64,000 nt of DNA from Spirochaetota bacterium (lineage in GTDB: Bacteria; Spirochaetota; UBA4802; UBA5550): contig CAXXHB010000003.1 in NCBI GenBank assembly GCA_963664815.2, positions 1,024,001 to 1,088,000 on the forward strand, in the 5' to 3' direction. A program made the position numbers and the translations under genes. The first letter of the stretch is position 1, and each line of letters begins with the position of its first letter. Under the pieces are notes generated by a model. It searched no databases and had not been told where the DNA came from. It was given only the letters and a program-made list of their open reading frames with translations. This document shows, one piece after another, positions 4,369 through 55,324 of this stretch.

Positions 4369-7142
4369 AATCGCCTGCCACATCCATAATGAATATTTCA
4401 TCAATACTGACAGGTATAATCAGTATTATAATAGCATTGTCCATTCCGACGGCGCATTTTATATACGCTTACCAGTACATGACAGGCGCTGTCAACGCCG
4501 AGATGACATTTTCTGCCCGGGTCATTGAGGGCCTGGTCGTCAACAATCCGGATTCATGGCAGTATGAAGAGAGTCGTTTAAAGGAGATACTGGAACATCA
4601 TCTTAACCGTACAAGCCGTGAAAATATGAGAATTAAAGATCTTAATGGACACGTATTGGCAGAGACAAATGAATACCCGGCATATCCGGTGATCACCATG
4701 AGACGGTATATTTATGATTCAGGCGTTGAAGTGGCATTGATCGAGAGTGAATGTTCAATAGCCCCTGTAATATTTCGTACAATATTTACCGGGGTTTTTT
4801 CGACTTTGTTCGGCATCATGGTTTTTCTTCTCTTTTATTTTTTCCCCTTAAAAACTGTCAGGATAGCTTATAAGAATCTGCAGGAAAGCGAGGAGCGTAT
4901 CAGGTCTATTATTTCGACAAGTCAGGAGTGGATATGGGCAATAGACACTGATGGAATCCACACCTTCAGCAATCCCGCAGTTGAAAACATCCTAGGGTAC
5001 AGGCCGGATGAAATAGTGGGCTGTACTGCCATACCGTTTCTGATATATACAGAAGATATTCCAAAGATGAACGCGCTTGTTAAAGACAGTATCCGGAACG
5101 GAACAGGCTGGTCAGACATCGTCCTGCGGTGGAATCACAGGGATGGAACAATCCGCTACCTCGAGAGCTTCGCCATGCCGGTTTTTGACAGCGCAGGTGT
5201 GATTACAGGTTTCCATGGATCTGACAGGGATATTACTCAGCGGCAGCAGGCGGAGGATTCTATAAAAAAGAGCGAGGAGCTCTACCGGACTATCTTTGAA
5301 AGCACCTCCACCGCCAATATCATTATCAATGAAGATTCCACGATTCGAATGGCAAATAACAATTTCGCCGAACTTAGCGGATATACAAAGAAGGAGCTGG
5401 AGGGTAAAATCAGCTGGGATGTGCTTGTGCATAAGGATGATCTGGAAAAGATGAAAAACTACCATAAGATGAGAAGGATAAATCCCGATGCTGTGCCGAC
5501 TTCCTATGAAATCCGGTCTATTGGACGTAAAAACGGAGAGAGGAATCTTTTATTAAATGCGGCCATAATTCCGGAAACAAAGGAGAGTGTTATTTCAATT
5601 GTGGATATCACAGAATGGAAACGCCTGGAAAAGGCAAGGATCGAGAGTGAAGAACGTTTCAGGGAGCTTGCGGAACTCCTCCCGGAAACTGTTTATGAGG
5701 CTGATATAAACGGTATATTTACTTTTGTAAACAATTCAGGTTATGAGAAGTTCGGCTATAATTGGGGGGATCTTTTAAAAGGAACGTCGATATTTGATCT
5801 CATTGTTCCGGAAGAACATACTGCCATGATTGAAACTTACCGGAAACTCATTAAAGGAGAAAGAGTGGCTTTGACTGAATATACCGGGAGAAGGAAGGAT
5901 GGTTCTGCTTTCCCTGTACTGGTCCAGGCAATGGCAATTTTTAATAACGGGAAGGTGGCGGGACACAGGGGATTTGTCATTGATATCTCTGAAAAGAAAA
6001 ACATGGAGGATCAGCTTTCAAAGGCAAAAAAAATGGAAGCAATAGGGACGCTTGCAGGGGGTATTGCACATGACTTCAATAATCTGCTTATGGGTATTCT
6101 GGGAAACATATCACTTATTCTGATGAAAATGGATGAAAGTGATCCTGTATATAAACGGCTTAAGAGCGTTGAGGAATATGTTCAGCGGGGGTCGAGCCTG
6201 ACTAACCAGCTTCTCGGGTTTGCCCGGGGCGGAAAATACGAGGTTAAGTCAACGGATATAGGGATGTTTATACAGAATATTTCGGAATTATTCGGACGGA
6301 CCAGAAAGGAGATACATATTCACCACAGGGCACAGGATGGCCTCTGCACCGTTGATATAGACCAGGGGCAGATAGAGCAGGTGCTTATCAACATGTATCT
6401 GAATGCCTCGCATGCAATGCCGGATGGAGGAGACCTCTACCTTTTTGAAGAGAATGTTGAACTTGACAGCAGCCAGGTGAAACCTTACGGGATAGAGCCG
6501 GGGAGATTTGTCAGGCTGACTGTTCAGGATACCGGCACTGGAATGGATGAAACTACTAAAGCAAGAATATTTGAGCCGTTTTTTACAACACGTGAGCCCG
6601 GCCATGGCACCGGCCTTGGACTTGCATCGGCATACGGGATAATAGGGAATCACGGAGGATTTATCAATGTTGAAAGCGAGAAGGGAACAGGAACAACCTT
6701 TGAGATTTATCTCCCGGCATCCGCCGGGAATGCCGAGCCTGCCGTAAAGAGCGAGGATTGTGTTTTTAAAGGAAATGAAACCATACTTCTGGTTGATGAT
6801 GAAGAGATGATCCTTGATGTTACGGCGGAGATGCTCAGAGAGCTCGGCTATAATGTTATAACCGCTTCAGGCGGGATAAGGGGAATAAAAACATATGAAC
6901 AGAAGATGGATAAGATTGACCTGGTTATTCTTGACATGATTATGCCTGACGTCAGCGGAAAAGAAGCATTTGACGAGATGAAGCGTATAAACCCTCATGT
7001 GAAAATACTGCTGTCCAGCGGCTACAGTCTCGACAGCCATGCAAAGGAGATTATTCAGCATGGAAGCAGCGGGTTTATACAGAAACCGTTTGTTACTAAA
7101 GATCTTTCTAAAAAGATCCGGGGACTGCTTGATAAGGGATAA
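4365..7142 (+). CDS. membrane hybrid sensor histidine kinase (2 TM, 3 PAS, HisKA/HATPase, REC)
   Basis: [13 protein letters not shown]-box, FEPFFTT, GTGLGL, C-terminal LLVDDE/LDMIMP receiver; ATGA overlap with upstream gene. Confidence 0.92.
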
Positions 7143-7457
7143 GAGATACCCCGGCACACTTAAAGGGGGCAAAGCAGAACTGTCTGTATAGTACCTTCGG
7201 CAATTTGGACTCATCAGACCACGCACACTTCTGTCTGTCGAGTACATCATCTGTTAAATTTACCTGTACCATAAGCCCCCGCACCCCCGGAGGTGGCAAA
7301 GCAGTATGCCAATTTGATAAACCTGTTTTATTAACATATAAAATTTTTAAAAATTCTGCTTGCGCCATGTCATTTGTTTTTCCGGACTGGTTATTAGAGA
7401 CATAAGTTTCTATATAAATAACGATAAAATATAACAGCAATAAAGGAGTGTATATCT

Positions 7458-7997
7458 ATGGCAAAAGTTAAGCTTCATCCCTATTTAAGAACTGCGCATG
7501 GTGGTCTGGATGGTCTTGTCTTTTACCGTCGTTATGGTAAAATTTATATTAAGGCACGTACAATACCGGCTAATCCGAGAACTGAGCCGCAGGTTAAGTG
7601 CAGGGGTAATTTTGGAGGCGGTGTTAAGGCTTGGCAGGTTCTCCCGGAGGAGGAGAAGAACATTTACAGAGCAAGAGCAAAAAGAAAGAAAAAGTCAGGG
7701 TATAACCTTTTTATGTCGGAATACCTTCGCGGTATTGCTCCCGGTTCGCCTGTTATCCCATCGGGAAGCGGCGGAACAGGGGATGCAGTGGTTATATCTT
7801 CTTCCGCTGAAGCTGCAGAATATACATGCTGCTATTCAGGAAACAGCAGATCAGCAGATGGACAGAGTAATAATAATGCGGTAAAAAATAAAAGTAAATC
7901 TGTTAAAACGGGACTTAAGCAGTATATAGACCCTGTTAAAAACCGTTTCAATACCGTTTCAACACCGTTACCTACAGAGAAAAACGCGCGTTTATAG
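7458..7997 (+). CDS. basic hypothetical protein, possible nucleic-acid binder
   Basis: AAGGAG RBS; conserved-looking N-terminal ~90 aa (GGLDGLVFYRRYGK..PANPRT.PQ...R..F...W..L.EEEK..Y...SGYNLFM) followed by a low-complexity tail. Confidence 0.7.
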   Translation: MAKVKLHPYLRTAHGGLDGLVFYRRYGKIYIKARTIPANPRTEPQVKCRGNFGGGVKAWQVLPEEEKNIYRARAKRKKKSGYNLFMSEYLRGIAPGSPVIPSGSGGTGDAVVISSSAEAAEYTCCYSGNSRSADGQSNNNAVKNKSKSVKTGLKQYIDPVKNRFNTVSTPLPTEKNARL

Positions 7998-8116
7998 CTG
8001 TATGTAACGTGTTCGAAGCGAAATTAAAGCGAAACTCAATACTCTGTAAACAGATTGTGATATTTGTCATAAATCTGACGTGAATTTGAATCAGAACCAG
8101 TTGATGCACGAGGCAG

Positions 8117-44724: not shown

Positions 44725-47004
44725 ATGAAAGGCGGAAAACTTAATATCGGGATTATACCCACCCCATATGTCCGGAAATGGCAGGAGTCAGTGGATATAT
44801 TATCAGAAATCTCGAGCGCTCAATTGTCTGTATTGATGAGAGTTGATGGTGATTTTCTTGAAGTAATTGCAGCTAATGGTGCTGCTGCAGTTCCGGTGAA
44901 TACAGGATACCGGATTAATAAAATGCCGCGTTCGTTTTTTGAAAAGATAGCAGGTTCAGGAGAGCTTGTCTGTGCTGTAAATGATTCACAGGATGTAAAC
45001 AGCAAAGAGATGTCCGATCTGAACCTGGGGTTTGTCTCCTGCATCGGCATCCGGCTGGTTCTCCCTGATGATGAACTCTTCGGACTTCTCTGTGTACTGT
45101 ATAATGATGAGATATCTTTTAACAGCAGCATCGGGAAAATTATTTCAGGATTGAGACGGATTATTGAAATTGATCTCAGAATATATATACATGATTCTCT
45201 TATAAATGATGACCTGAAAAGCAGGGAGTTCCGTTTCGAGGAGAGGTTCAGGCAGATCGCTGAAAATATCACAGAGGTATTCTGGATAGTATCCTCAGAC
45301 TGGAATGAAATGATATACGTCAGCCCTGCATACGAGGAGATATGGGGCAAGAGCTGCAGGAGTTTATATGAAGATCCACGTTCGTGGCTTGATTCAGTGG
45401 CTGCTGATGACCGCGAATCTGTACTTTCGGCCATACGTGACAAGGCATCGGGAGATATAACGGATCCCGGGTTTCCGGAGTACCGGATAATCCGCCCTGA
45501 TGGCAGCATCAGGTGGATTTACGCCAGGGCTTTTCCCGTAAGAAACGCTGAAGGTGAAACATACAGGATGGCGGGGATTGCCGAGGATATAACCGGACGC
45601 AAGAATATTGAACTTGAACTGAAACTCAAGGAGAATGCCCTTGATTCATCGCTCAGCGGTATAGGGATATCTGATATGAAAGGGAAGATCGTTTATGTCA
45701 ATCCTTCAATGGTTAAAATGTGGGGATATGATTCGGCTGATGAGATAAAGGGGAGGATAGCGGCTGAATTCTGGGAAAAACCTGACATGGCTGTTCAGGT
45801 AAACCGTGACATCCTTAAAAATGAAATTTATTCCGGACTCCTCTCGGCATTAAGGAAAGACGGTTCCGTTTTTATGTCCCGTTTTTTTGCAACTATGCTC
45901 AAGGGGAAAGATGGAAGGGCAATGTATCTTATGGGATCATTTCTCAATGTAACCGAAGAGCTGAAATCGGAACAGATTTTAATGGACAGCGAAGCCAGGC
46001 TTAAAGAGGCGCAGGAGATTGCCAACCTGGGGTACTGGGATTATGACATTAAAAATGACCGCCTCACATGGTCGGACGAAATGTACAGGATATTCAACCT
46101 TGAGCCCGGATCTGTAGTGCCTACATATGAAGCCTTTCTTGACAATGTACATCCGGACGAAAGGGAGTTTGTCAACCAGATATATACCGGATTCATCTAC
46201 AGCAGAATACCTTATGATATAGTACACAGGTTTGATCTGAAAGATGGTACAGTGAAGTATGTTAATGAAAGATGCAGAATTGAATGTGACAGCAAAGGGA
46301 AGGCTGTCCGGTCATTCGGCACTGTTCTTGACATTACAGGGAGGATTGAGTCTGAAAATCAGCTGAAGGATGCACTTAAAGAAAAGGAGGCCCTGATTCA
46401 TGAAATATACCACAGAACCAGGAATAATATGCAGATTATCTGCGGCCTCATGGAACTGAAGGCATCATATCTTGGAAACAGTGAACTTGCCGAACAGTGC
46501 ATGGAGATTGAGAACAGAATTATGTTCATGGCTCTTGCCCATGAAAAGCTCAGCCGGTCGGGTAATCTATCAAAAATAGATTTCAGGGAATATATTGAGG
46601 AGCTGGTGGAGCTACTTCTGAAAAGATACAGAGTCTCAGATGAACGTATAACGGTTTCAATAGATGTGGAAAACATCAACCTCCTTATTGATTATGCTGT
46701 TCCATGCGGGCTGATACTTGGCGAGCTTTTATCCAATTCATTCAAACATGCCTTCCCGGGGGGGAGGAGAGGGAATGTCTCTGTAAAATGCTTCAGAACC
46801 GGAGAATATATAGAGATACATTCGGGGGATGACGGCTGCGGACTTCCCGTGTCATTTGACATTAATAATGCGGACAGCTTCGGATTGATGATAATGAAAA
46901 ATATAGTCATAAGCCAGCTCAGGGGGATTGTGGAGTGTAAAAACGAAAGCGGAGTCTCTTGGCGTATAGTTTTCAACGATAATAAATATTACGAGCGTGT
47001 ATGA
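44725..47004 (+). CDS. GAF-PAS histidine kinase (HisKA_2 type)
   Basis: EIYHRTRNNMQ, ELLSNSFKHAF, DDGCG; PAS repeats. Confidence 0.88.
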   Translation: MKGGKLNIGIIPTPYVRKWQESVDILSEISSAQLSVLMRVDGDFLEVIAANGAAAVPVNTGYRINKMPRSFFEKIAGSGELVCAVNDSQDVNSKEMSDLNLGFVSCIGIRLVLPDDELFGLLCVLYNDEISFNSSIGKIISGLRRIIEIDLRIYIHDSLINDDLKSREFRFEERFRQIAENITEVFWIVSSDWNEMIYVSPAYEEIWGKSCRSLYEDPRSWLDSVAADDRESVLSAIRDKASGDITDPGFPEYRIIRPDGSIRWIYARAFPVRNAEGETYRMAGIAEDITGRKNIELELKLKENALDSSLSGIGISDMKGKIVYVNPSMVKMWGYDSADEIKGRIAAEFWEKPDMAVQVNRDILKNEIYSGLLSALRKDGSVFMSRFFATMLKGKDGRAMYLMGSFLNVTEELKSEQILMDSEARLKEAQEIANLGYWDYDIKNDRLTWSDEMYRIFNLEPGSVVPTYEAFLDNVHPDEREFVNQIYTGFIYSRIPYDIVHRFDLKDGTVKYVNERCRIECDSKGKAVRSFGTVLDITGRIESENQLKDALKEKEALIHEIYHRTRNNMQIICGLMELKASYLGNSELAEQCMEIENRIMFMALAHEKLSRSGNLSKIDFREYIEELVELLLKRYRVSDERITVSIDVENINLLIDYAVPCGLILGELLSNSFKHAFPGGRRGNVSVKCFRTGEYIEIHSGDDGCGLPVSFDINNADSFGLMIMKNIVISQLRGIVECKNESGVSWRIVFNDNKYYERV

Positions 47005-47378
47005 CAAAAGCGGATAAAATCAGGCTGATGATAGTTGAGGATGAAATCATTACCGCAATGCTTATCAGAAAGAGAATGACAGGCATCGGACTTGATGTCT
47101 GCGGCATAGCCGCATCCGGTGAAGAGGCCGTGCTGATGGCCGATCTTCACAGACCGGATCTGATAATGATGGACATCAGACTCTCCGGTATAATTGACGG
47201 CATTGAGGCGGCATGGAGAATTGTACAGTCTATGGAGTCAAAAATTGTATTCGTTACAGGATATATCAATGAAGACATTCAGAATGAAGTAAAAAAAATA
47301 AATCCGCTGGCCTTCCTGACAAAACCTGTGAATTTTGACGAATTGATTGAAATTATAAAGCGTGAGTTTTCTCTTTGA
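47001..47378 (+). CDS. single-domain response regulator
   Basis: IVEDE, MMDIRL, FVTG, TKP. Confidence 0.9.
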   Translation: MTKADKIRLMIVEDEIITAMLIRKRMTGIGLDVCGIAASGEEAVLMADLHRPDLIMMDIRLSGIIDGIEAAWRIVQSMESKIVFVTGYINEDIQNEVKKINPLAFLTKPVNFDELIEIIKREFSL

Positions 47379-47399: not shown

Positions 47400-47440
47400 A
47401 AAATCCGCATTATCCGGCGGATTTCCTTAATGCGGATTTT
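47400..47440. terminator. hairpin between convergent genes
   Basis: AAATCCGCATTA...TAATGCGGATTT. Confidence 0.5.
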
Positions 47441-50400
47441 TTAGCTCCGGGTTTAGTCTTAACCTTTTCTGCCGTTTCAGTCGCCGGTTCATCCGGATCA
47501 GTTTCATCCGAAAGTGTGTCAGGTTTCTTTTTTATTCTGAATCTGCTTTCTATAAACTCCCTGAACATGTCGATGTATTCAAATGTAGCAGGTACTACCG
47601 CCAGCGTAATTACTGTTGAAACAAGAAGACCTCCGAGAATTGCAACACCCATCGACTGCTTTATCTGGGCCCCTTCACCGAGACCCAAAGCAAGGGGGAG
47701 CATGCCGGCCATCATGGCGAATGTTGTCATAAGAATCGGACGCAGCCTTTTAAGCCCGGCATCCATAATTGCCTTCTTCCTCTCAACTCCCGATCGTACC
47801 CCCTCCAGGGCAAAGTCAACAAGGAGTATTGAGTTCTTGGTGACAAGCCCCATGAGCATTACCATCCCTATCATGCTGAACATGTCAAGAGTAAACCCGG
47901 TTACAAGCAGTGAGATTAACGCACCGGTCATGGCGGGTGGAATTGCAAGGAGTATGGTAAAGGGTGTAATAAACGATTCGTAAAGGCTTGCAAGCACCAG
48001 AAAGATAAATATAAACGAGAGGGTGAAAGCAACTTTTATTCCCGAGAGAAGCTCTCCGAAGCTCTCTGATTCCCCTATAAAACTGTATGTAACACCGTTG
48101 GGGAGAGGATATTTCTCTTTAATCAGTTTTTCAGTCAGGTTCATTGCATTACCGACGGCGCCCTTTGCCGAGAGGTTTGCAGTTATTGCTATTACGTACG
48201 CCCTGTCCTGGCGGCTTATTTTTGATTTGCCGGTTGTGCTGTTGAAATCCGCTATGGCAGTCAGGGGAACCATCATGTTATGCATATTAGGTATTTTTGT
48301 CGATTTATAGGTGTATCTCAGATCTCTCTGGTCAGGTCTGAGCCTTGCCCTGATGTCGTATTCAAGACCGCCGTCTGTAAGTTTGCCGACTACTGCGCCG
48401 GCTACATCATACCTCAGTTCCATCCCCGCAACACCAGGTATTACACCGAGTTCTTTCATCTTGAACTGATTCATTTTAACCTGAAATTCCGCTTTACCGG
48501 TTTCATAACTCGATTCAACCTCGGTCAGGTCTGGTATTTTCTGCAGATCCTTTAACATGTCTGTTGAGTATTTTTCTATCTGTTCAAGATTATTCCCCTT
48601 TATGGCGAGAATGTACGGCTTGTCATCAATTGATGAGATTTTAATCCTGTCAACGGCAGGTCTGGCGTATTGAAAATCTGCAAGAAATTTCCTGGTTTCG
48701 GTCTTGTTCCACTCTGTATTGTTCTTTCTCATCTCAACCGGCAGGAGAAAACAGTCAATTTTTCCCTGTTCAGGTTCCCCCTGGTCGCCCCCTATCGTTA
48801 CCGACATATAGTCAAGATCCTGAAGCGTTTTAATCCTGGTCTCAATTTGGCTTATTACCTCCTGCGTACCCTGGAGACTTGTGCCGTTGGGAAGTTTTAT
48901 GGAAATAGTATACATTCCATCATCCCCTTCAGAAACAAATCCCTGTTTAATAAAAGCCATTAAACCAAGGCTGCTTATGAAAACGAGTGTTGTAATTATT
49001 ATAATTGTGAGAGGTTTGGTGAGGCAGAAGTTCATTATAACAAGATATTTCTCTTCAAGGTATTTCTGGAACTTCTCGAAATTTCTGACCAGAATATTTT
49101 TAGCCTTTTCACCCGAGCCTGCGAAGTAGGCGCTGAGGAAAGGGGCGACTGTAAGTGCGTCGAAGAGACTCACCGCCATTGCGAATACTACGGTAAATCC
49201 GAACTGTTTGAAAAACCTTCCAACTATACCCTGGAGGAATGCAATGGGGATAAATACAGACATGATTGTAAGGGTTGTGGCTATAACGGCAAGCATAACC
49301 TCTTTCGTCCCCTTTTCAGCCGCCTCGTCCGGAGGGAGACCGCCTTCAAGTTTCCGGAATATATTCTCCCTGACAACGATGGCGTCATCGACAAGAAGAC
49401 CGACGGTAAGAGAAAGTGCCAGCAGCGTAATCATATTTATCGTGAAGCCCATGTAGTACATTATTATAAATGCGCCGATGAGCGAATTAGGTATGGCAAC
49501 ACCTGTAATAATTGTGGAGCGTATGTTTCCCAGAAAGAGATAAACAACGAATATGGCAAGAATTATCCCGAGTATAATATCCCGTGATGTTTCGTCAACG
49601 TTTATCCTTATCCAGTGGGATGTGTCAAGAACTGTAATGAGTTTCGGAACGCCTTTGTAATCCTTAAGCATGGTGTTTACATCGCCCAGACTTTTGTATA
49701 CTTCATCGACGACCTTTACAGTGTTTGCTCCCGACCGTTTCTGAATGTCAAGGAAGATACATGATCTTGTGGTTCTTGCCGGATTGGCTTCATTTTTCTT
49801 CTTTTTGTACTTGGCCCCCTTCTCATAGGGGTAGTAGAGGTAAGTGATGTTCTTGATATCTTCATTGCCGTCCCTTACTGTTCCAAGGTCTTTAAGCGCA
49901 ATCCCGCTTCCCATGTCACCTGAAAATGAAATGAGGCTGTTTTCAATCTGGGAAAGCTTTGTAAACTCCCCGATTGCCCTGAAGTTTGTTTCGGTGCTTC
50001 CATGTTCTCTCTTTCCGATCGGGATATTTGAACCTGATCCCTTCATGTTGTGGACAACTGAAGTGGTGGAAAGCCTGAACTCGTTAAGTTTATCCTGATT
50101 CAGTTCAACCTGTATTTCACGCCTTGTGCCTCCAAGGAGCTTTACGTCGCCGACGCCCTCTATGCGGACAAGCCTCGGTTTCAGCACCTCTTTGGCGATA
50201 TCATAAATATCGGAAGGGGAGAGGTCGGCAACAAGTCCCATCCTGAGAATTGGCGAATCGGAGGGGTCAAGCTGTTGTACAAGCGGTTCGTCTATATCAT
50301 CGGGGAGTTTATTCTTGGCAATGTTTATCTTTCCACGAACTGTCTGGTCAGCCTGCCTTAAATCGGTATCAAGCATAAATTCAATTGTTATAATGGATAT

Positions 50401-50661
50401 TCCCTCAAGGTTTGTCGAGTATATATGCCTTATCCCTTCAACTGCACCGAGTTCCTCCTCAAGAGGCTTGGTTATCAGTTTCTCAATCTCCTCTGGTGCG
50501 GCACCGGGATACACGGTAGATATGGAGAGCATTGGAAAGTTAATTTCCGGGAAAAGATCAACTCCGAGCCTGTTCAATGAAATGACGCCGAAGGTCAGCA
50601 TTGACAGCACTATACATGAGATAAGAATAGGGCGTTTTATGGAAAGCTTTGCTATGTTCAT
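47410..50661 (-). CDS. RND efflux permease (AcrB/AcrD/AcrF family)
   Basis: YPGAAPEEIE, VDDAIVV.EN, KNSILLVDF, RLRPILMT. Confidence 0.95.
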   Translation of the reverse strand: MNIAKLSIKRPILISCIVLSMLTFGVISLNRLGVDLFPEINFPMLSISTVYPGAAPEEIEKLITKPLEEELGAVEGIRHIYSTNLEGISIITIEFMLDTDLRQADQTVRGKINIAKNKLPDDIDEPLVQQLDPSDSPILRMGLVADLSPSDIYDIAKEVLKPRLVRIEGVGDVKLLGGTRREIQVELNQDKLNEFRLSTTSVVHNMKGSGSNIPIGKREHGSTETNFRAIGEFTKLSQIENSLISFSGDMGSGIALKDLGTVRDGNEDIKNITYLYYPYEKGAKYKKKKNEANPARTTRSCIFLDIQKRSGANTVKVVDEVYKSLGDVNTMLKDYKGVPKLITVLDTSHWIRINVDETSRDIILGIILAIFVVYLFLGNIRSTIITGVAIPNSLIGAFIIMYYMGFTINMITLLALSLTVGLLVDDAIVVRENIFRKLEGGLPPDEAAEKGTKEVMLAVIATTLTIMSVFIPIAFLQGIVGRFFKQFGFTVVFAMAVSLFDALTVAPFLSAYFAGSGEKAKNILVRNFEKFQKYLEEKYLVIMNFCLTKPLTIIIITTLVFISSLGLMAFIKQGFVSEGDDGMYTISIKLPNGTSLQGTQEVISQIETRIKTLQDLDYMSVTIGGDQGEPEQGKIDCFLLPVEMRKNNTEWNKTETRKFLADFQYARPAVDRIKISSIDDKPYILAIKGNNLEQIEKYSTDMLKDLQKIPDLTEVESSYETGKAEFQVKMNQFKMKELGVIPGVAGMELRYDVAGAVVGKLTDGGLEYDIRARLRPDQRDLRYTYKSTKIPNMHNMMVPLTAIADFNSTTGKSKISRQDRAYVIAITANLSAKGAVGNAMNLTEKLIKEKYPLPNGVTYSFIGESESFGELLSGIKVAFTLSFIFIFLVLASLYESFITPFTILLAIPPAMTGALISLLVTGFTLDMFSMIGMVMLMGLVTKNSILLVDFALEGVRSGVERKKAIMDAGLKRLRPILMTTFAMMAGMLPLALGLGEGAQIKQSMGVAILGGLLVSTVITLAVVPATFEYIDMFREFIESRFRIKKKPDTLSDETDPDEPATETAEKVKTKPGAKKSALRKSAG

Positions 50662-50896: not shown

Positions 50897-52240
50897 CTAG
50901 AATACCTTCTTTATTACCATGAGTGTAATATCATCGTCCTGCCCTGCCTTGTATGAGTCTATATCATCAAGCATGGCGAGAATTATTTCGTTTATGGGGA
51001 GTGAGCTGTGCAATCTGAAAGATTGTATTACGCGTTCATCCCCATAAAGTTCCCCTTTGCTGTCCACAGCCTCTGAAGCGCCGTCAGTATATAAAAGTAT
51101 AAGATCACCAGCACTGATCTCTATTTCATGATCTTTCATAAAATGATCAATATTATCTGCTATTCCTATCCATGTGCCTGAGGTGGGGATAATATCGATG
51201 TTGCCGGAACTCCTCATAATTACAACATCCTGGTGTTTCCCGGCAACTGTCAGTTTACTCTCTTCCAGTTTCAGAGCTATTATTGTCATGTATCTTTTCA
51301 TGTTAAGGCGGAGAATGTTTTTTCTTATTACGGAATTTATAGCACTGAGCATTCTGGAGGGGGCGTAACCCGAAGTGCGGTTAAGAATTGAAAATATGCT
51401 TGTCTGAGTCATCATCATTATGAGCCCGGAATCCACACCGTGACCCGATACATCCCCTATGGTAACCCATTTTTCCCCGGAATCGGTCTCAAAAAAATCG
51501 TAATAATCACCCCCGACTTCATCGGCAGGTTTCATTACAGCCGCAACCTGGTATTCTCCAAGGCGTCCGTTTCCCGGAAGAAGTGAAGTCTGTATTTTTT
51601 TTGCGAGTTTCATCTCTCCCCATAATGCATCTCTTGCTTTACGGAGTTCTGTCCGCAGAAAAAATTCCTGTTTAATAAGTTTATGCCTCACATAATTTAT
51701 GCTTACCGCTATGATAACTGTTCCATTCATAAAGTAAAGATTATTGATCAGATTCTCTGCTCTGAAAGGGTGGGGGAAAATAAGATTTATTACGACATAA
51801 AACATGACAAGCATAAAGCCATTTATGGCTGAATGGTAAGCCTCCCAGGGGAGCAGCAGGTTTACCCCTATAATCACAAGATTTATTCCTGCATAATAAC
51901 TTGAGTCAAATCCGCCGAGGTTCACTGTCATGATGGCAATAACACCCCCTACAACAAGGGACACCAGATAACCGTGTAAATGTGAAAATGTTCCCGGTGA
52001 GGTTTTTTTAATAATAAAATACTGGATAACCGGGATAGCGGTTGCAGTTATTCTGTACAGGGCAAACCGGGGAAGCAGATCCGCCGGCATTGTAAAATAG
52101 TCAAGTATAAAGAAGAGGGGGACAAGTACAAAGGCAAGCGCAGTAAGTGTAAGCGACCATTCATGAATAATTTTATGGAGGTACTCATTAATTGTAAAAT
52201 CTGTTGCTCTTGAAAGGTTTTTCCAGGTTCTTACGGTCAT
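50897..52240 (-). CDS. membrane sensor fused to PP2C/SpoIIE phosphatase
   Basis: ~6 TM including SSYYAGINLV..LLPW; VGGDYYDF, IGDVSGHG, LYTDG, DDITL. Confidence 0.9.
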   Translation of the reverse strand: MTVRTWKNLSRATDFTINEYLHKIIHEWSLTLTALAFVLVPLFFILDYFTMPADLLPRFALYRITATAIPVIQYFIIKKTSPGTFSHLHGYLVSLVVGGVIAIMTVNLGGFDSSYYAGINLVIIGVNLLLPWEAYHSAINGFMLVMFYVVINLIFPHPFRAENLINNLYFMNGTVIIAVSINYVRHKLIKQEFFLRTELRKARDALWGEMKLAKKIQTSLLPGNGRLGEYQVAAVMKPADEVGGDYYDFFETDSGEKWVTIGDVSGHGVDSGLIMMMTQTSIFSILNRTSGYAPSRMLSAINSVIRKNILRLNMKRYMTIIALKLEESKLTVAGKHQDVVIMRSSGNIDIIPTSGTWIGIADNIDHFMKDHEIEISAGDLILLYTDGASEAVDSKGELYGDERVIQSFRLHSSLPINEIILAMLDDIDSYKAGQDDDITLMVIKKVF

Positions 52241-52252
52241 ATTATTAATTAC

Positions 52253-53644
52253 CTATTGTCTGGTTGCGGTAAGAAACATCTGGGTTCCGGTGTCCTCAAA
52301 TATTATTGTTAAATCCCTGGCATCCGTATCCTTAAGAAGGGCCGCAAATTCATCCTCTGTCCGGTAGTAAAGAACCCAGTCATGCCAGTACTCCAGGAAC
52401 CAGCGGCTCCGGTTTTTAAAGTGGTAATTCCCTACCAGCAGCCTGCCCCCCGGTTCAAGCAGCGAATACATCTTCTCTATAACAGCCTTGGCAACGGGCG
52501 GTGTCAGGTAATCAAAGAGCCCCATTGAATAGATGCAGTTGAATCTGCCCCATGTGTCTGAAAGGTTTTTTGTACGAACCATAGTTCTCACGGAGTCTCT
52601 GATATACTGTACATTTATTTTATAACCGATTCTTTTTTCTATAGCCTGGATGTTCTCCGATGCTTCGTTTATGGCTTCAGCATCCTGATCCAGCAGAGTG
52701 CAGTGGAAAATCTCTGCATCACTTTCGCCGGAAAAAATATCATTCAGCTCATAAGCAGGGCCGCATGCAACTGACATGAATCTGAAAGGGGTGTTTTGCA
52801 CGCCGTAAATCTCATCCCTGATGGTTCTGATAAGTTTCGGAATCATGATTCTCCTGTTTCTCACGGCCTGCGCTGCGGGATGCTCAAGTGAAAATTTGTA
52901 GAGGATTTTGGAGAAAATACTGTCGCCTCTGTATTCGTTTTCATAGATCATTCTCATGGTTTCTGAATCGCCAATATATCCCCTCGGCTTGATATTGGTA
53001 CGTGTCATGAATTCCGAGCAGAGTATTATATCCCATACCTGCTTCCTCAGGTAAAATCCATGTATCTCGTGTTCTTCGTGTGTGTAATTGCTTATCACTC
53101 TTTCCAGATCTTCAAGATATGCAGCAAAGAAATCCATAAACCTTCTCCCTTCGGTGCTGATGACTGCCTGAATAACAGGTTCTTTTACAGAATCCGGTTC
53201 CGGTTTGATTGTGCTGTCGAGTTCGTCAAAAAACTGTTTATAGACCTTTAAATCGTAGGTAAGCATGGATACGTAGTTTTTGAAATCATCCCTCACTCTG
53301 TCTTTGTGGTTGAGTATAAGGGCAAGATTTTTTGAAAGCTCATCCGGGTTGATGAAGTCTTTATTACTGAAGAGAATATCAAAATTATATAAATCGTCAA
53401 TAAAAACAAGGCGTCCATTGATACCGCAGATATCTGTCTCAGATAAAAACCGGCAGTTTCCCAGTTCATAATTTTTGCTGTCAACAGATATTGAAAGGGA
53501 TGAGAACTCTTCACCATCCCGTATGGACTGGCAGTTCTCAAATTTTATGAATATGGAATACCTGGAGGCGTAATGTATTTCCACAGGTATGGATATATTG
53601 TCAGACTTCAGTATTCCGTTAAATGTATTATTATTTTTTTCCAT
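52253..53644 (-). CDS. class I SAM methyltransferase, PhcB-like
   Basis: KPRGYIGD, AVRNR, SVACGPAYE, LLDQD, YSMGLFDYL, LEPGG..GN, W.LYYR; 463 aa. Confidence 0.75.
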   Translation of the reverse strand: MEKNNNTFNGILKSDNISIPVEIHYASRYSIFIKFENCQSIRDGEEFSSLSISVDSKNYELGNCRFLSETDICGINGRLVFIDDLYNFDILFSNKDFINPDELSKNLALILNHKDRVRDDFKNYVSMLTYDLKVYKQFFDELDSTIKPEPDSVKEPVIQAVISTEGRRFMDFFAAYLEDLERVISNYTHEEHEIHGFYLRKQVWDIILCSEFMTRTNIKPRGYIGDSETMRMIYENEYRGDSIFSKILYKFSLEHPAAQAVRNRRIMIPKLIRTIRDEIYGVQNTPFRFMSVACGPAYELNDIFSGESDAEIFHCTLLDQDAEAINEASENIQAIEKRIGYKINVQYIRDSVRTMVRTKNLSDTWGRFNCIYSMGLFDYLTPPVAKAVIEKMYSLLEPGGRLLVGNYHFKNRSRWFLEYWHDWVLYYRTEDEFAALLKDTDARDLTIIFEDTGTQMFLTATRQ

Positions 53645-53649
53645 TCAGG

Positions 53650-54021
53650 TCACTTCCCGGTGATTTCAATTCTGCGATCCCTGGTTTCAAAAATTTTTAA
53701 TGCTGAAAAACTGAGATCCTGCCATTTCTTCGACTTTTTATATTGTATTGAAACTGAACTGTTCATATCATTGGCTTTTTCCACTGTCCTGATTACAGGA
53801 GTAATTGTGGATGAGTTCATATATTCAAGCTCCAGGAAATTCAGAATAACCATCTTGCCGAACTTTATGCTGTTGTTTAACGACTCTGTGAGAATGGGGG
53901 ATATGAAATCTGACGGATCGCGCTCGGTGCTTTTCCCTTTAAACCTGATGTTTATTTCGGTTTGCGTTTCTTCCACCTCAATTGTAAGCATACTGCTGGT
54001 AAAAGTTTCAACATGTGACAT
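53650..54021 (-). CDS. STAS/SiaC-like phosphoacceptor protein
   Basis: LNFLELEYMNSST matches the anti-anti-sigma LDxxxLxYMDSS motif. Confidence 0.7.
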   Translation of the reverse strand: MSHVETFTSSMLTIEVEETQTEINIRFKGKSTERDPSDFISPILTESLNNSIKFGKMVILNFLELEYMNSSTITPVIRTVEKANDMNSSVSIQYKKSKKWQDLSFSALKIFETRDRRIEITGK

Positions 54022-54531
54022 TTATAACCTCCCCGGCTCTGACAGATGATAAACAGCTGAAACAGATATTATATTATTATCATTCACAAAAAAGTCTATT
54101 ACCGACTGTCCTTCATAGGCAATGCGGACAATCCCCAGACCGCTCTGTGTGTCATCTAACGGCTGGCGGGAGATCTCCTTAATCTTTTCAACATATGCCT
54201 CAAAGGGATTCTGGTATCCGCGTACCCACTGAATTATTTTATCCAGACGATTGAAGTGCATGTCGTCTCCATCTTTAACAGGACTTTTCACCTCTACAGT
54301 TATATCTCTCTCAGATATGGTTATTGCAGCGATAATCTCGTCTATGTTGTTTTCGAAATTCCCGTATTTGATGGCATTTTCAAGAAGTTCGCTTATGTTC
54401 ATAATGATCGCGTTTTTCACATTCTCGTCAAGTCTGTCTGAATTCAGAAAACCCTCAGCCTTAACGCGAACTTCTTCTATATTGTCCCATTCCGGTTTAA
54501 TACTCACCACAATCTTTTTATTCATAAACAT
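54022..54531 (-). CDS. anti-sigma/SiaB-like Ser/Thr kinase (HATPase fold)
   Basis: SELLENAIKYG N-box, SGLGIVRI G-box, no HisKA. Confidence 0.75.
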   Translation of the reverse strand: MFMNKKIVVSIKPEWDNIEEVRVKAEGFLNSDRLDENVKNAIIMNISELLENAIKYGNFENNIDEIIAAITISERDITVEVKSPVKDGDDMHFNRLDKIIQWVRGYQNPFEAYVEKIKEISRQPLDDTQSGLGIVRIAYEGQSVIDFFVNDNNIISVSAVYHLSEPGRL

Positions 54532-54955
54532 CTCCGGGAATTTATCAGCCTGGTAACTATCAATTTAACAATATAGATAAATTATAGAAAAACCAAATTT
54601 TTTTATAACAGTCTGCATTTCTGTTTTTTAGGGGGTATAAGGCTGATAAATTTCCTTATCTTTTAAATTGGCGGGATCACTGCAAAGAAGCCAGTTCCAT
54701 ATTTAAACCTTTTATAAATATAATTCGGAACACGATTTCAGGATTAAAGGATTAACGGAATTACCTGTGAATACAACGGCAGATTTAAAGGTCAGAGGAT
54801 TTCGTTTACTTTATACTAAAACAGGTGCTGAGGAACTAACGTTGAAATGTAATATAAATTCTGATCTGACAGTAACAAATATAACCACATATCTGTTGAT
54901 ATTTTGAGTTGCAAATTAATCCGGTTTTTATATATATAACATATGGAGCTTAAAT

Positions 54956-55168
54956 ATGCCTTTCATAAAAATAGAGGGATTCACGGGGAACATCTATGTA
55001 CCCGAAAAAAACCAACAGAAAAAAAAGCATCCCTGTGAAGACTGTTTTTCATGCCAGTTCTGCAGCGATGAAAGGTGTGAACTCTGCCGCAGGAATAAAT
55101 GCTGCACAAATACGAAAGAATCATCATCTCCCCCTGTGACAGTTGAAAACAAATCTGTGAAAGAATAA
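54956..55168 (+). CDS. small Cys-rich hypothetical protein
   Basis: GGAG RBS; CEDCFSCQFCSDERCELC...CC. Confidence 0.65.
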   Translation: MPFIKIEGFTGNIYVPEKNQQKKKHPCEDCFSCQFCSDERCELCRRNKCCTNTKESSSPPVTVENKSVKE

Positions 55169-55184
55169 TTATGAAATACAGGTT

Positions 55185-55201
55185 TTAACGGTATATTAAC
55201 G
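55185..55201 (+). promoter_or_regulatory. candidate KdpE (OmpR-type) direct-repeat site
   Basis: TTAACG-N5-TTAACG, 11-bp period, upstream of kdpA. Confidence 0.35.
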
Positions 55202-55324
55202 ATCATAATGCGGAAATTCACTAAAAACTCACCAATGCTGCAATAATCTTAACCAGTATAAAATTGAAAAAATCCCTTTTAGTCTTTAAATCAATACTAT
55301 CAGTAATTTATGGGGAGAAAACAT

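Follow-up and report, generated by a model that had tools for sequence, protein, structure and literature searches.

A stretch of 64,000 nucleotides from a Spirochaetota bacterium (assembly GCA_963664815.2, contig CAXXHB010000003.1, starting at position 1,024,001; hereafter the window) carries a compact cassette of four minus-strand open reading frames (ORFs) at 50897-54531. They encode, in gene order, a kinase-like protein, a putative STAS-like phosphoacceptor, a methyltransferase dependent on S-adenosylmethionine (SAM) and a membrane-bound sensor-phosphatase. A first-pass annotation of this DNA had described four tightly packed genes here. The ORF listing places them exactly there, with intergenic gaps of 0, 5 and 12 bp, and all the motifs quoted in that annotation (KPRGYIGD, ACGPAYE, GLFDYL, WVLYYR, SSYYAGINLV...LLPW and YMNSST) are present in the translations. 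Taken together, the comparisons suggest that the cassette is a synthase and sensor of the Phc type rewired to a Ser/Thr partner switch, an arrangement of which no earlier description was found in the literature searched.

Protein families of the cassette

The methyltransferase had been proposed to be PhcB-like, and this holds over the full length of the protein. By hhalign, the profile built from 16 cassette methyltransferases matched one built from 13 PhcB orthologues, which belong to named Burkholderiales such as Ralstonia, Cupriavidus and Paraburkholderia, at a probability of 100% (E 3.3e-46, 427 columns); the reversed control reached 0.3%. The alignment runs from 14-463 against 16-464, so the homology takes in the N-terminal, non-catalytic part. 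Four motifs are common to both subfamilies and invariant or nearly so, namely KPxGYxGD, CGPAxE, GLFDY and W...R; the same is true of residues K219, P220, G222, Y223, G225 and D226. In pairwise comparison, the identity is 27% (E 6e-35, residues 176-457). Pfam assigns residues 272-441 to generic class I families only (Methyltransf_25, Methyltransf_31 and Methyltransf_23), at about the cut-off, and a sequence search of the PDB gave no match below E 0.05. Relatives are numerous, with 4170 at E <= 0.001 and 356 at E <= 1e-30 in a HMMER search of 1.84 billion representatives. Among the 120 closest of 1452 homologues at E <= 0.001, many bear the IMG name 'extracellular factor (EF) 3-hydroxypalmitic acid methyl ester biosynthesis protein'.

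The reference loci were obtained by way of a plasmid. A tblastn search of plasmids with the cassette methyltransferase gave 143 matching records, none of which covers at least 80% of the query. It also gave a Paraburkholderia graminis operon with a methyltransferase (468 aa), a histidine kinase (445 aa) and two receiver proteins. This phcBSRQ-like operon lies on pPHS1_P, a 494-kb plasmid typed as conjugative (record positions 432595-436970), and the gene at its PhcR position encodes a bare 134-aa receiver without the kinase-like part of the Ralstonia and Cupriavidus proteins. An alignment seeded on the P. graminis protein was used to scan one genome per species, and 80 named PhcB-type loci were kept. 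They come from Paraburkholderia, Cupriavidus (including C. necator), four Ralstonia species, Janthinobacterium, Polaromonas and Hydrogenophaga, and also take in a few Planctomycetota and others. Since R. solanacearum is missing from these loci, the PhcB and PhcS references are proteins of other named Ralstonia species, C. necator and others, and not those of the experimentally studied strains. The Ralstonia loci have the order methyltransferase, kinase of 442-447 aa with HisKA and HATPase_c, protein with receiver, HisKA and HATPase_c, and receiver protein. This order agrees with the description of phcBSRQ in the available part of PMC6989110. According to the same excerpts, PhcB is required for the synthesis of 3-hydroxypalmitic acid methyl ester (3-OH PAME) or 3-hydroxymyristic acid methyl ester (3-OH MAME), and these esters 'likely trigger' the autophosphorylation of PhcS (PMC6989110).

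A quick maximum-likelihood tree was made of 61 chosen methyltransferases (33 PP2C-linked, 6 from a cyclase variant described below, 19 kinase-linked and 3 short outgroup paralogues). The 19 kinase-linked and the 39 switch-linked proteins fall on opposite sides of long branches, each with a support of 99 in the Shimodaira-Hasegawa-like approximate likelihood ratio test (SH-aLRT). The clean split is partly a matter of construction because the two groups stem from two different searches, and one very long outgroup branch is misplaced. Five of the six cyclase-variant methyltransferases form one clade within the switch-linked group. Judged by its separate clade and an identity of about 27%, the cassette enzyme is not an orthologue of PhcB. 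Shorter paralogues (352-368 aa, 25-32% identity) lacking the N-terminal barrel were seen in three loci of relatives (L019, L020 and L021). These loci contain no kinase, STAS or PP2C genes, and the L020 paralogue adjoins a large PAS histidine kinase.

The AlphaFold model of the methyltransferase (predicted local distance difference test score, pLDDT, 89.4) consists of an N-terminal beta-barrel, a helical middle region and a Rossmann-type alternation of strands and helices (Table 1). The nearest solved chain is 3ocj_A, an uncharacterised Bordetella protein (Z 19.8, root-mean-square deviation 3.6, 252 aligned, model residues 120-463). The structural neighbours returned by Foldseek and VIA-align are small-molecule methyltransferases, e.g., SgvM (E 6e-11, Z 19.3). 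These fold searches scarcely probed the barrel, as the lists obtained with the whole model are filled by the catalytic domain. Within the full-length hhalign match, the barrel region aligns with the N-terminal domain of the PhcB orthologues. PilZ was tried as an identity for the barrel and rejected: Pfam found the domain in 0 of 27 methyltransferase N-termini, and hhalign against cassette-linked PilZ proteins gave a probability of 0.2%. PilZ domains were found in longer relatives of about 600 aa (7 of 10 tested). Seven such proteins (P0186, P0198, P0208, P0244, P0245, P0252 and P0259) have one or two of them at the N-terminus, which suggests a possible control of the enzyme by cyclic di-GMP in part of the family.

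The sensor-phosphatase supplies the second likeness to Phc. Its hydropathy profile has six hydrophobic segments within residues 24-184, and the Ralstonia protein likewise has six. In hhalign, a profile of 7 phosphatase N-termini (residues 16-204) matched a profile of 13 N-termini of kinases encoded beside PhcB genes at a probability of 98.4% (E 9.9e-15, 186 columns). The controls, i.e., a reversed alignment and the window's KdpA, KdpD and RND membrane proteins, remained at or below 3.6%, which supports the earlier view of this domain as PhcS-like. By BLASTP, residues 38-221 of the whole phosphatase match residues 33-216 of the Paraburkholderia kinase (26% identity, E 8e-7), and the two proteins have an S-x-x-Y-A-G stretch in common. 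The sensor domain alone matches methyltransferase-adjacent kinases from Planctomycetota and others down to E 8e-15. Precomputed Pfam annotation, made with version PF20968.4, places PF20968 (MASE8) and PF07228 on the window's own protein and on most of the 120 hits shown. With the older local copy, PF20968.2, the window's phosphatase gives no match at E 0.1 or better; a paralogue (E 3.3e-4) and the Paraburkholderia kinase (E 0.0044) are matched, both below the cut-off.

The C-terminal part is a SpoIIE/PP2C domain (Table 1), so that the fusion of about six transmembrane segments with a PP2C phosphatase, as annotated in the first pass, was found again. Its translation contains GGDYYD, GDVSGHG, TDGASE and DDDIT, which we take to be the metal-binding motifs of the PP2C/SpoIIE family. 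The NCBIfam model of SiaA matches the phosphatase part only, with 60 bits where the cut-off is 700. By Pfam, HisKA and HATPase_c are present in the Ralstonia protein; in the window's protein this transmitter is absent, and SpoIIE/PP2C forms the C-terminus. Two more MASE8-like PP2C genes were noticed in the genome (G000:C3:1672782-1673420, in locus L202 at 6732-8105, and G000:C3:992992-993597, in locus L203 at 6315-7697). No methyltransferase, kinase or STAS gene adjoins them; among the genes around them are those for a MarR regulator and a metallo-beta-lactamase-fold protein. These two may be orphan receptors.

The kinase-like protein matches HATPase_c_2 of Pfam below the cut-off (E 1.8e-5, 25.2 against 27.4 bits), and HisKA is absent. 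Its AlphaFold model (pLDDT 89.7) is closest in Foldseek to SpoIIAB (1tid_A, E 2.8e-6), followed by RsbW (6m36), and superposes on SiaB (6kko_A) with a template modelling (TM) score of 0.63; SpoIIAB outranks SiaB by E-value. On this model, the protein appears to have the fold of SpoIIAB, RsbW and SiaB. No match to SiaB is listed for it in NCBIfam. Across 45 sequences, the N-box residues E48, N52, K55 and Y56 and the lid S130-G131-x-G133 are invariant.

The STAS-like protein is matched by the SiaC family of Pfam (DUF1987) at E 3.6e-4, with 20.6 bits against a cut-off of 24.5. Its profile of 45 sequences matches the anti-sigma antagonist TM1442 (E 1.2e-4), and SYMDSAG, the phospho-serine motif of TM1442, is aligned with EYMNSST, so that the phospho-serine position falls on S70. 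Against PDB sequences, this profile lists TM1442 and SpoIIAA and no SiaC chain. In the 45 sequences, N69, S71 and P75 never vary, and conservation is 90% or more at S70, T72 and T74. The slr1658 and slr1659 superfamilies were considered and set aside, as they scored 38 and 29.4 bits in hmmscan and 36.8 and 28.8 bits in the genome search against cut-offs of 100; a literature search on these names returned nothing relevant to the cassette.

Table 1 Features of the cassette and its upstream region (window coordinates)
Feature	Position	Strand	Basis or remark
Kinase-like protein, 169 aa	54022-54531	-	Anti-sigma-factor-type GHKL Ser/Thr kinase fold, without HisKA
STAS/SiaC-like phosphoacceptor (putative), 123 aa	53650-54021	-	YMNSSTxTP motif, residues 67-75
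PhcB-family SAM-dependent methyltransferase, 463 aa	52253-53644	-	hhalign to PhcB orthologues, motifs
N-terminal beta-barrel of the methyltransferase, residues 7-81	53402-53626	-	Strands in predicted model
Helical middle region of the methyltransferase, residues 88-280, with KPRGYIGD	52805-53383	-	Helices in predicted model
Class I (Rossmann) SAM-binding catalytic domain, methyltransferase residues 287-461	52262-52786	-	Pfam and predicted model
Membrane sensor-phosphatase, 447 aa, MASE8 (PhcS-type) and PP2C/SpoIIE	50897-52240	-	Precomputed PF20968 and PF07228
Six-segment membrane sensor domain, residues 16-204	51629-52195	-	hhalign to PhcS sensor domain
PP2C/SpoIIE phosphatase domain, residues 255-444	50909-51478	-	Pfam SpoIIE, E 6.6e-32
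AT-rich intergenic region from the kinase gene to the divergent kdpA, presumed cassette promoter region	54532-55309	.	GC 0.33-0.36

Conservation of the cassette and exchange of the sensor output

The order kinase, STAS, methyltransferase and sensor-PP2C was followed from close relatives to metagenomes. Among 41 genomes of relatives, 13 have a match and 8 a full-length orthologue. All 6 relatives' loci examined, with flanks that are not conserved, keep the order, as do all 6 loci taken from farther away in the phylum (methyltransferase identity 40-49%); this makes 12 of 12 genome loci and spans methyltransferase identities from 76% down to about 40%. In a sample of the phylum, an orthologue at E <= 1e-60 is present in 23 of 301 genomes. 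Named homologues come from Leptospira, Desulfobacterales, Calditrichia and Thermodesulfobacteriota, and the synthase/sensor pair spans several phyla, with Leptospira species and many bacteria from sediments among its carriers.

Metagenome contigs were examined for the best 80 of 505 relatives. Where at least 1000 nt lie upstream, both the kinase gene and the STAS gene are present (59/59 each), and where at least 1450 nt lie downstream, the methyltransferase gene is immediately followed by one that encodes the sensor domain (53/53). This gene encodes a sensor-PP2C fusion in 46 cases, a sensor with a class III cyclase in 6, and a split PP2C in one. The split case (L133:2632-3938) consists of two overlapping ORFs for the sensor and the phosphatase parts and reflects a frameshift or an assembly error. 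The ORFs of the STAS protein and the methyltransferase, 5 bp apart in the window, abut or overlap in many loci. When the ORFs around 93 loci were clustered, the core families were found in 88, 81, 75 and 68 of them, and the next best family in 8. A second PP2C paralogue stands beside the cassette in 8 of 67 loci only and is therefore not a core part. As the four-gene order recurs in relatives, in distant loci of the phylum and in metagenome loci with room for it, the arrangement is not due to chance. This supports the suggestion of the first-pass annotation that the presumed synthase and receptor domain stay adjacent. Of the three outcomes that it had named as refuting (no full-length homology to PhcB, a membrane domain unrelated to PhcS, no conserved linkage), all were checked and none came about.

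The PhcB-type loci offer a parallel with another output. The gene next after the methyltransferase encodes a sensor with HisKA/HATPase in 75 of 79 of them; in the 4 exceptions, the contig ends less than 800 nt past the methyltransferase. The cassettes themselves also vary. In the cyclase variant, the sensor is fused to a class III adenylate/guanylate cyclase, and all five proteins tested match PF00211 at E values around 1e-49. The order there is kinase, STAS, methyltransferase, sensor-cyclase, sensor-PP2C and a PilZ gene in 5 of 6 loci; in the sixth (L167), the PP2C gene lies upstream on the other strand. The five regular loci are L137, L141 (4106-10201), L149, L151 and L182, and their PilZ proteins have the canonical RxxxR and DxSxxG motifs. 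As predicted from these genes, a single operon of the variant would encode two receptors that have related sensor domains and differ in output.

Further proteins extend this series. A gene for a protein with Hpt and HATPase_c flanks the cassette in 3 of 6 relatives' loci, with BLASTP matches to the sensor region between E 4e-4 and 5e-7. The three proteins are about 680 aa long (L015:3123-5165, L016:1976-4021 and L018:815-2854), and their N-termini match the sensor region of the phosphatase. They may be a fourth output type for the sensor. Loci L096-L103, from Planctomycetota, Brocadiia, Thiotrichaceae and other metagenome-assembled genomes, have a protein of 856-883 aa after a PhcB-type methyltransferase. 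The one scanned with Pfam (L102:7400-9985) has a sensor followed by HisKA, HATPase, a receiver and again HisKA and HATPase, and looks like a fusion of PhcS and PhcR. The two parts that determine specificity in Phc, the synthase and the sensor domain, thus appear here as a portable pair. Such a pair would be combined with at least three outputs (histidine kinase, PP2C switch and class III cyclase) and possibly with the Hpt-kinase as well.

A proposed signalling circuit and its alternatives

Several known systems resemble the cassette in part. Like Phc, it has a full-length PhcB-family methyltransferase, with an N-terminal barrel, a helical KPxGYxGD region and a class I SAM domain, and the next gene begins with a six-segment sensor domain of the MASE8 type. 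Unlike Phc, the sensor is fused to PP2C instead of HisKA/HATPase, receivers similar to PhcR or PhcQ are lacking in the cassette, and the methyltransferase gene comes after those of a SpoIIAB-like kinase and a STAS protein. With SiaABCD of Pseudomonas aeruginosa (membrane PP2C SiaA, kinase SiaB, phosphoprotein SiaC and diguanylate cyclase SiaD), as far as the available excerpts describe it, the cassette shares a membrane PP2C, a small GHKL kinase, a small phosphoacceptor and an enzyme gene right after the phosphoacceptor gene, all in one operon. The kinase model also superposes on SiaB, and SiaC (Pfam) and SiaA (NCBIfam) give weak matches. However, the methyltransferase sits at the position of the GGDEF cyclase, the sensor is MASE8 and, again as far as the excerpts go, the gene order differs. 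In addition, the scores for Sia families given above, those of SiaA and SiaC, are far below the cut-offs, and neither Pfam nor NCBIfam found a GGDEF family on any of the four cassette proteins.

The partner switches RsbU-RsbV-RsbW and SpoIIE-SpoIIAA-SpoIIAB likewise combine a SpoIIE-family PP2C, a kinase of the anti-sigma-type fold and a STAS antagonist with a conserved serine. In contrast to them, no sigma factor gene is found in or near the cassette, in the flanks or in the clustering of the 93 loci, and the input comes through a membrane sensor that is paired with a small-molecule synthase of its own. In outline, CqsA/CqsS and LqsA/LqsS also have the gene for the synthase of a hydrophobic signal beside that of a receptor with a six-helix membrane sensor. 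In these systems the synthase depends on pyridoxal phosphate, the synthase and sensor families are not known to be related to those of the cassette, and the output is a histidine kinase.

On balance, we lean, with a confidence somewhat above even, towards regarding the four genes as one signalling cassette, in which a self-made methylated signal is read by the MASE8-PP2C protein into a STAS phosphorylation switch. We infer the product, its perception, the phosphorylation cycle and the output as follows. The PhcB-family methyltransferase would make a small molecule that is methylated and lipophilic. The analogy with PhcB makes a methyl ester derived from a fatty acid the most likely product, though probably another compound than that of PhcB. 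This molecule would partition into the membrane and be perceived there by the MASE8 domain of the adjacent phosphatase. Ligand occupancy would then set the PP2C activity on the phosphorylated STAS-like protein, in place of a His-Asp relay. The acceptor would be Ser70 or the neighbouring Ser71, and the kinase similar to SpoIIAB and SiaB would put the phosphate back. The phosphorylation state of the STAS protein, or the kinase sequestered by it, would control a target encoded outside the cassette. A signal between cells would be favoured over a signal within one cell.

The pair is read as a synthase and its cognate receptor because each member is homologous to one Phc partner and the two stay adjacent across phyla as the fused output changes. 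This comparative argument is the strongest one for the proposed circuit. Several observations weigh against it. Two of the three MASE8-like PP2C genes of this genome have no methyltransferase nearby, and therefore the sensor is not tied to the synthase exclusively. The cassette is patchy: of 126 genera sampled, 11 have it. In the 93 loci, no output gene recurs beside it, so the circuit as proposed is incomplete. The product may differ in compound or in substrate class, given the separate clade and an identity of about 27% in the catalytic half. Perception of the ester by the membrane domain of PhcS is itself described only as likely in the available part of PMC6989110. As for the switch, the kinase profile matches PDB sequences weakly (E 0.085 to SpoIIAB), its activity is not assured since the 45-sequence consensus has no clear DxGxG G1 box, and the Pfam and NCBIfam matches of both the kinase and the STAS protein are all below the curated cut-offs.

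A broader version of the proposal can be put forward tentatively, and we hold it to be somewhat improbable in its full extent. The cassette would then represent a widespread, undescribed class of autoinducer system, with a diffusible lipid-derived methyl ester, a MASE8-PP2C receptor (in some lineages also a cyclase) and a Ser/Thr STAS readout.

Alternatively, the methyltransferase might be the regulated output of the switch, as SiaD is, with the sensor-PP2C responding to a different cue, from the membrane or from outside; this seems unlikely to us. The dephosphorylated STAS protein or the kinase would bind the methyltransferase and so switch on a methylated effector. The enzyme gene indeed follows the STAS gene closely, as described above, in a placement that parallels that of siaC and siaD. 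In Pseudomonas aeruginosa, siaC directly precedes siaD. The absence of any other conserved output gene near the cassette would fit as well, and the conserved N-terminal beta-barrel could be a regulatory docking site. The available part of PMC6989110 suggests that the activity of PhcB is regulated and that its N-terminal region matters. Left unexplained by this alternative is the PhcS-type sensor that stands beside the methyltransferase whatever the output, including in PhcB-type loci without the kinase and STAS genes. Moreover, a fusion of STAS with the methyltransferase was not found; the two longer STAS matches both lie on contigs of about 1 kb and are hence uninformative, so this is weak evidence. 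Complex prediction for the methyltransferase and the STAS protein (alignments of 43 and 45 rows) gave a score of 0.00 twice, and with the controls not folded it speaks neither for nor against binding. Regulation of the enzyme could coexist with the proposed synthase-receptor circuit as a positive feedback loop.

A little less probable still is a private homeostatic loop, in which the methyltransferase modifies a membrane lipid or a metabolite retained by the cell and the MASE8 domain monitors the same cell. The proteins nearest to the enzyme in structure, which methylate small molecules or lipids and include cyclopropane fatty acid synthase, are in line with this. So are the six membrane segments, which, read from the hydropathy positions, are joined by short loops and would fit sensing inside the membrane. 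The PilZ domains of the longer relatives and the PilZ gene of the cyclase variant point to intracellular second-messenger inputs in part of the family. On the other hand, autoinducer systems typically have a membrane sensor encoded next to its synthase. For PhcB and PhcS, the only relatives that have been characterised, the available part of PMC6989110 describes an ester that is secreted and diffusible.

That the methyltransferase is an unrelated passenger in the operon of a generic stress partner switch is very improbable and already disfavoured by the synteny counts: spirochaete genomes are rich in PP2C, STAS and kinase paralogues (here, 8 weak STAS-like and 3 MASE8-like PP2C matches), but the four families occur together in every locus with room over a wide divergence with unconserved flanks, and both the sensor domain and the methyltransferase have a homologue among the two partners of a single known system.

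If the pair works as it does in Ralstonia, it would be a directly testable candidate for chemical communication in spirochaetes, a ligand class would be assigned to the MASE8 domain, and a readout by Ser/Thr phosphorylation would join the known quorum sensing architectures. If the autoinducer reading is true, the cassette would hold the first protein-phosphatase receptor in quorum sensing and would be a first candidate quorum sensing system of spirochaetes, including Leptospira; MASE8 would be a portable sensor for a class of methyl-ester signals. In the literature searched, which left most subscription journals aside, no paper among the matches listed links PhcB or PhcS with PP2C, SpoIIE, Leptospira or Spirochaetes. 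MASE8 occurs in 2 papers, of which one, a preprint on HD-GYP proteins, is relevant and mentions it once. In the excerpts available from the papers found, the Phc system is described only from Ralstonia, Cupriavidus and Paraburkholderia. With its four genes, the cassette is compact and could be transferred to a laboratory host.

Intergenic region and neighbouring genes

Upstream of the cassette, the divergent genes kdpABC-kdpD follow after an AT-rich intergenic region (Table 1; GC content taken from the covering 1000-base windows). No ORF of at least 80 aa lies fully within this region; one plus-strand ORF of 101 aa (54251-54556) reaches 25 bases into it. One promoter-like site was found there on the minus strand (54878-54851), and the number of sites in the region is about that expected from shuffled sequence. 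Terminator and promoter scans were close to the shuffled expectation too, and the whole window contains no Rfam family. No RNA run is among the 6 sequencing runs listed (5 with the stretch or part of it, from 2 studies).

The flanks in the window contain no sigma factor or diguanylate cyclase gene, in agreement with what had been noted for the operon; they consist of kdpABC-kdpD and a pump gene. The latter (47410-50661, minus strand) encodes an AcrB-family RND pump of 1083 aa. It is read in the same direction as the phosphatase gene, from which 235 bp separate it on the downstream side, and has no adjoining gene for a membrane-fusion or outer-membrane partner. This pump could serve as an exporter of a hydrophobic product; an RND gene is absent from the 6 relatives' loci and from the conserved flank families. 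Converging on the pump gene is a plus-strand pair at 44725-47378, with a 4-bp overlap, for a PAS-rich HisKA_2 histidine kinase (759 aa) and a stand-alone receiver (125 aa).

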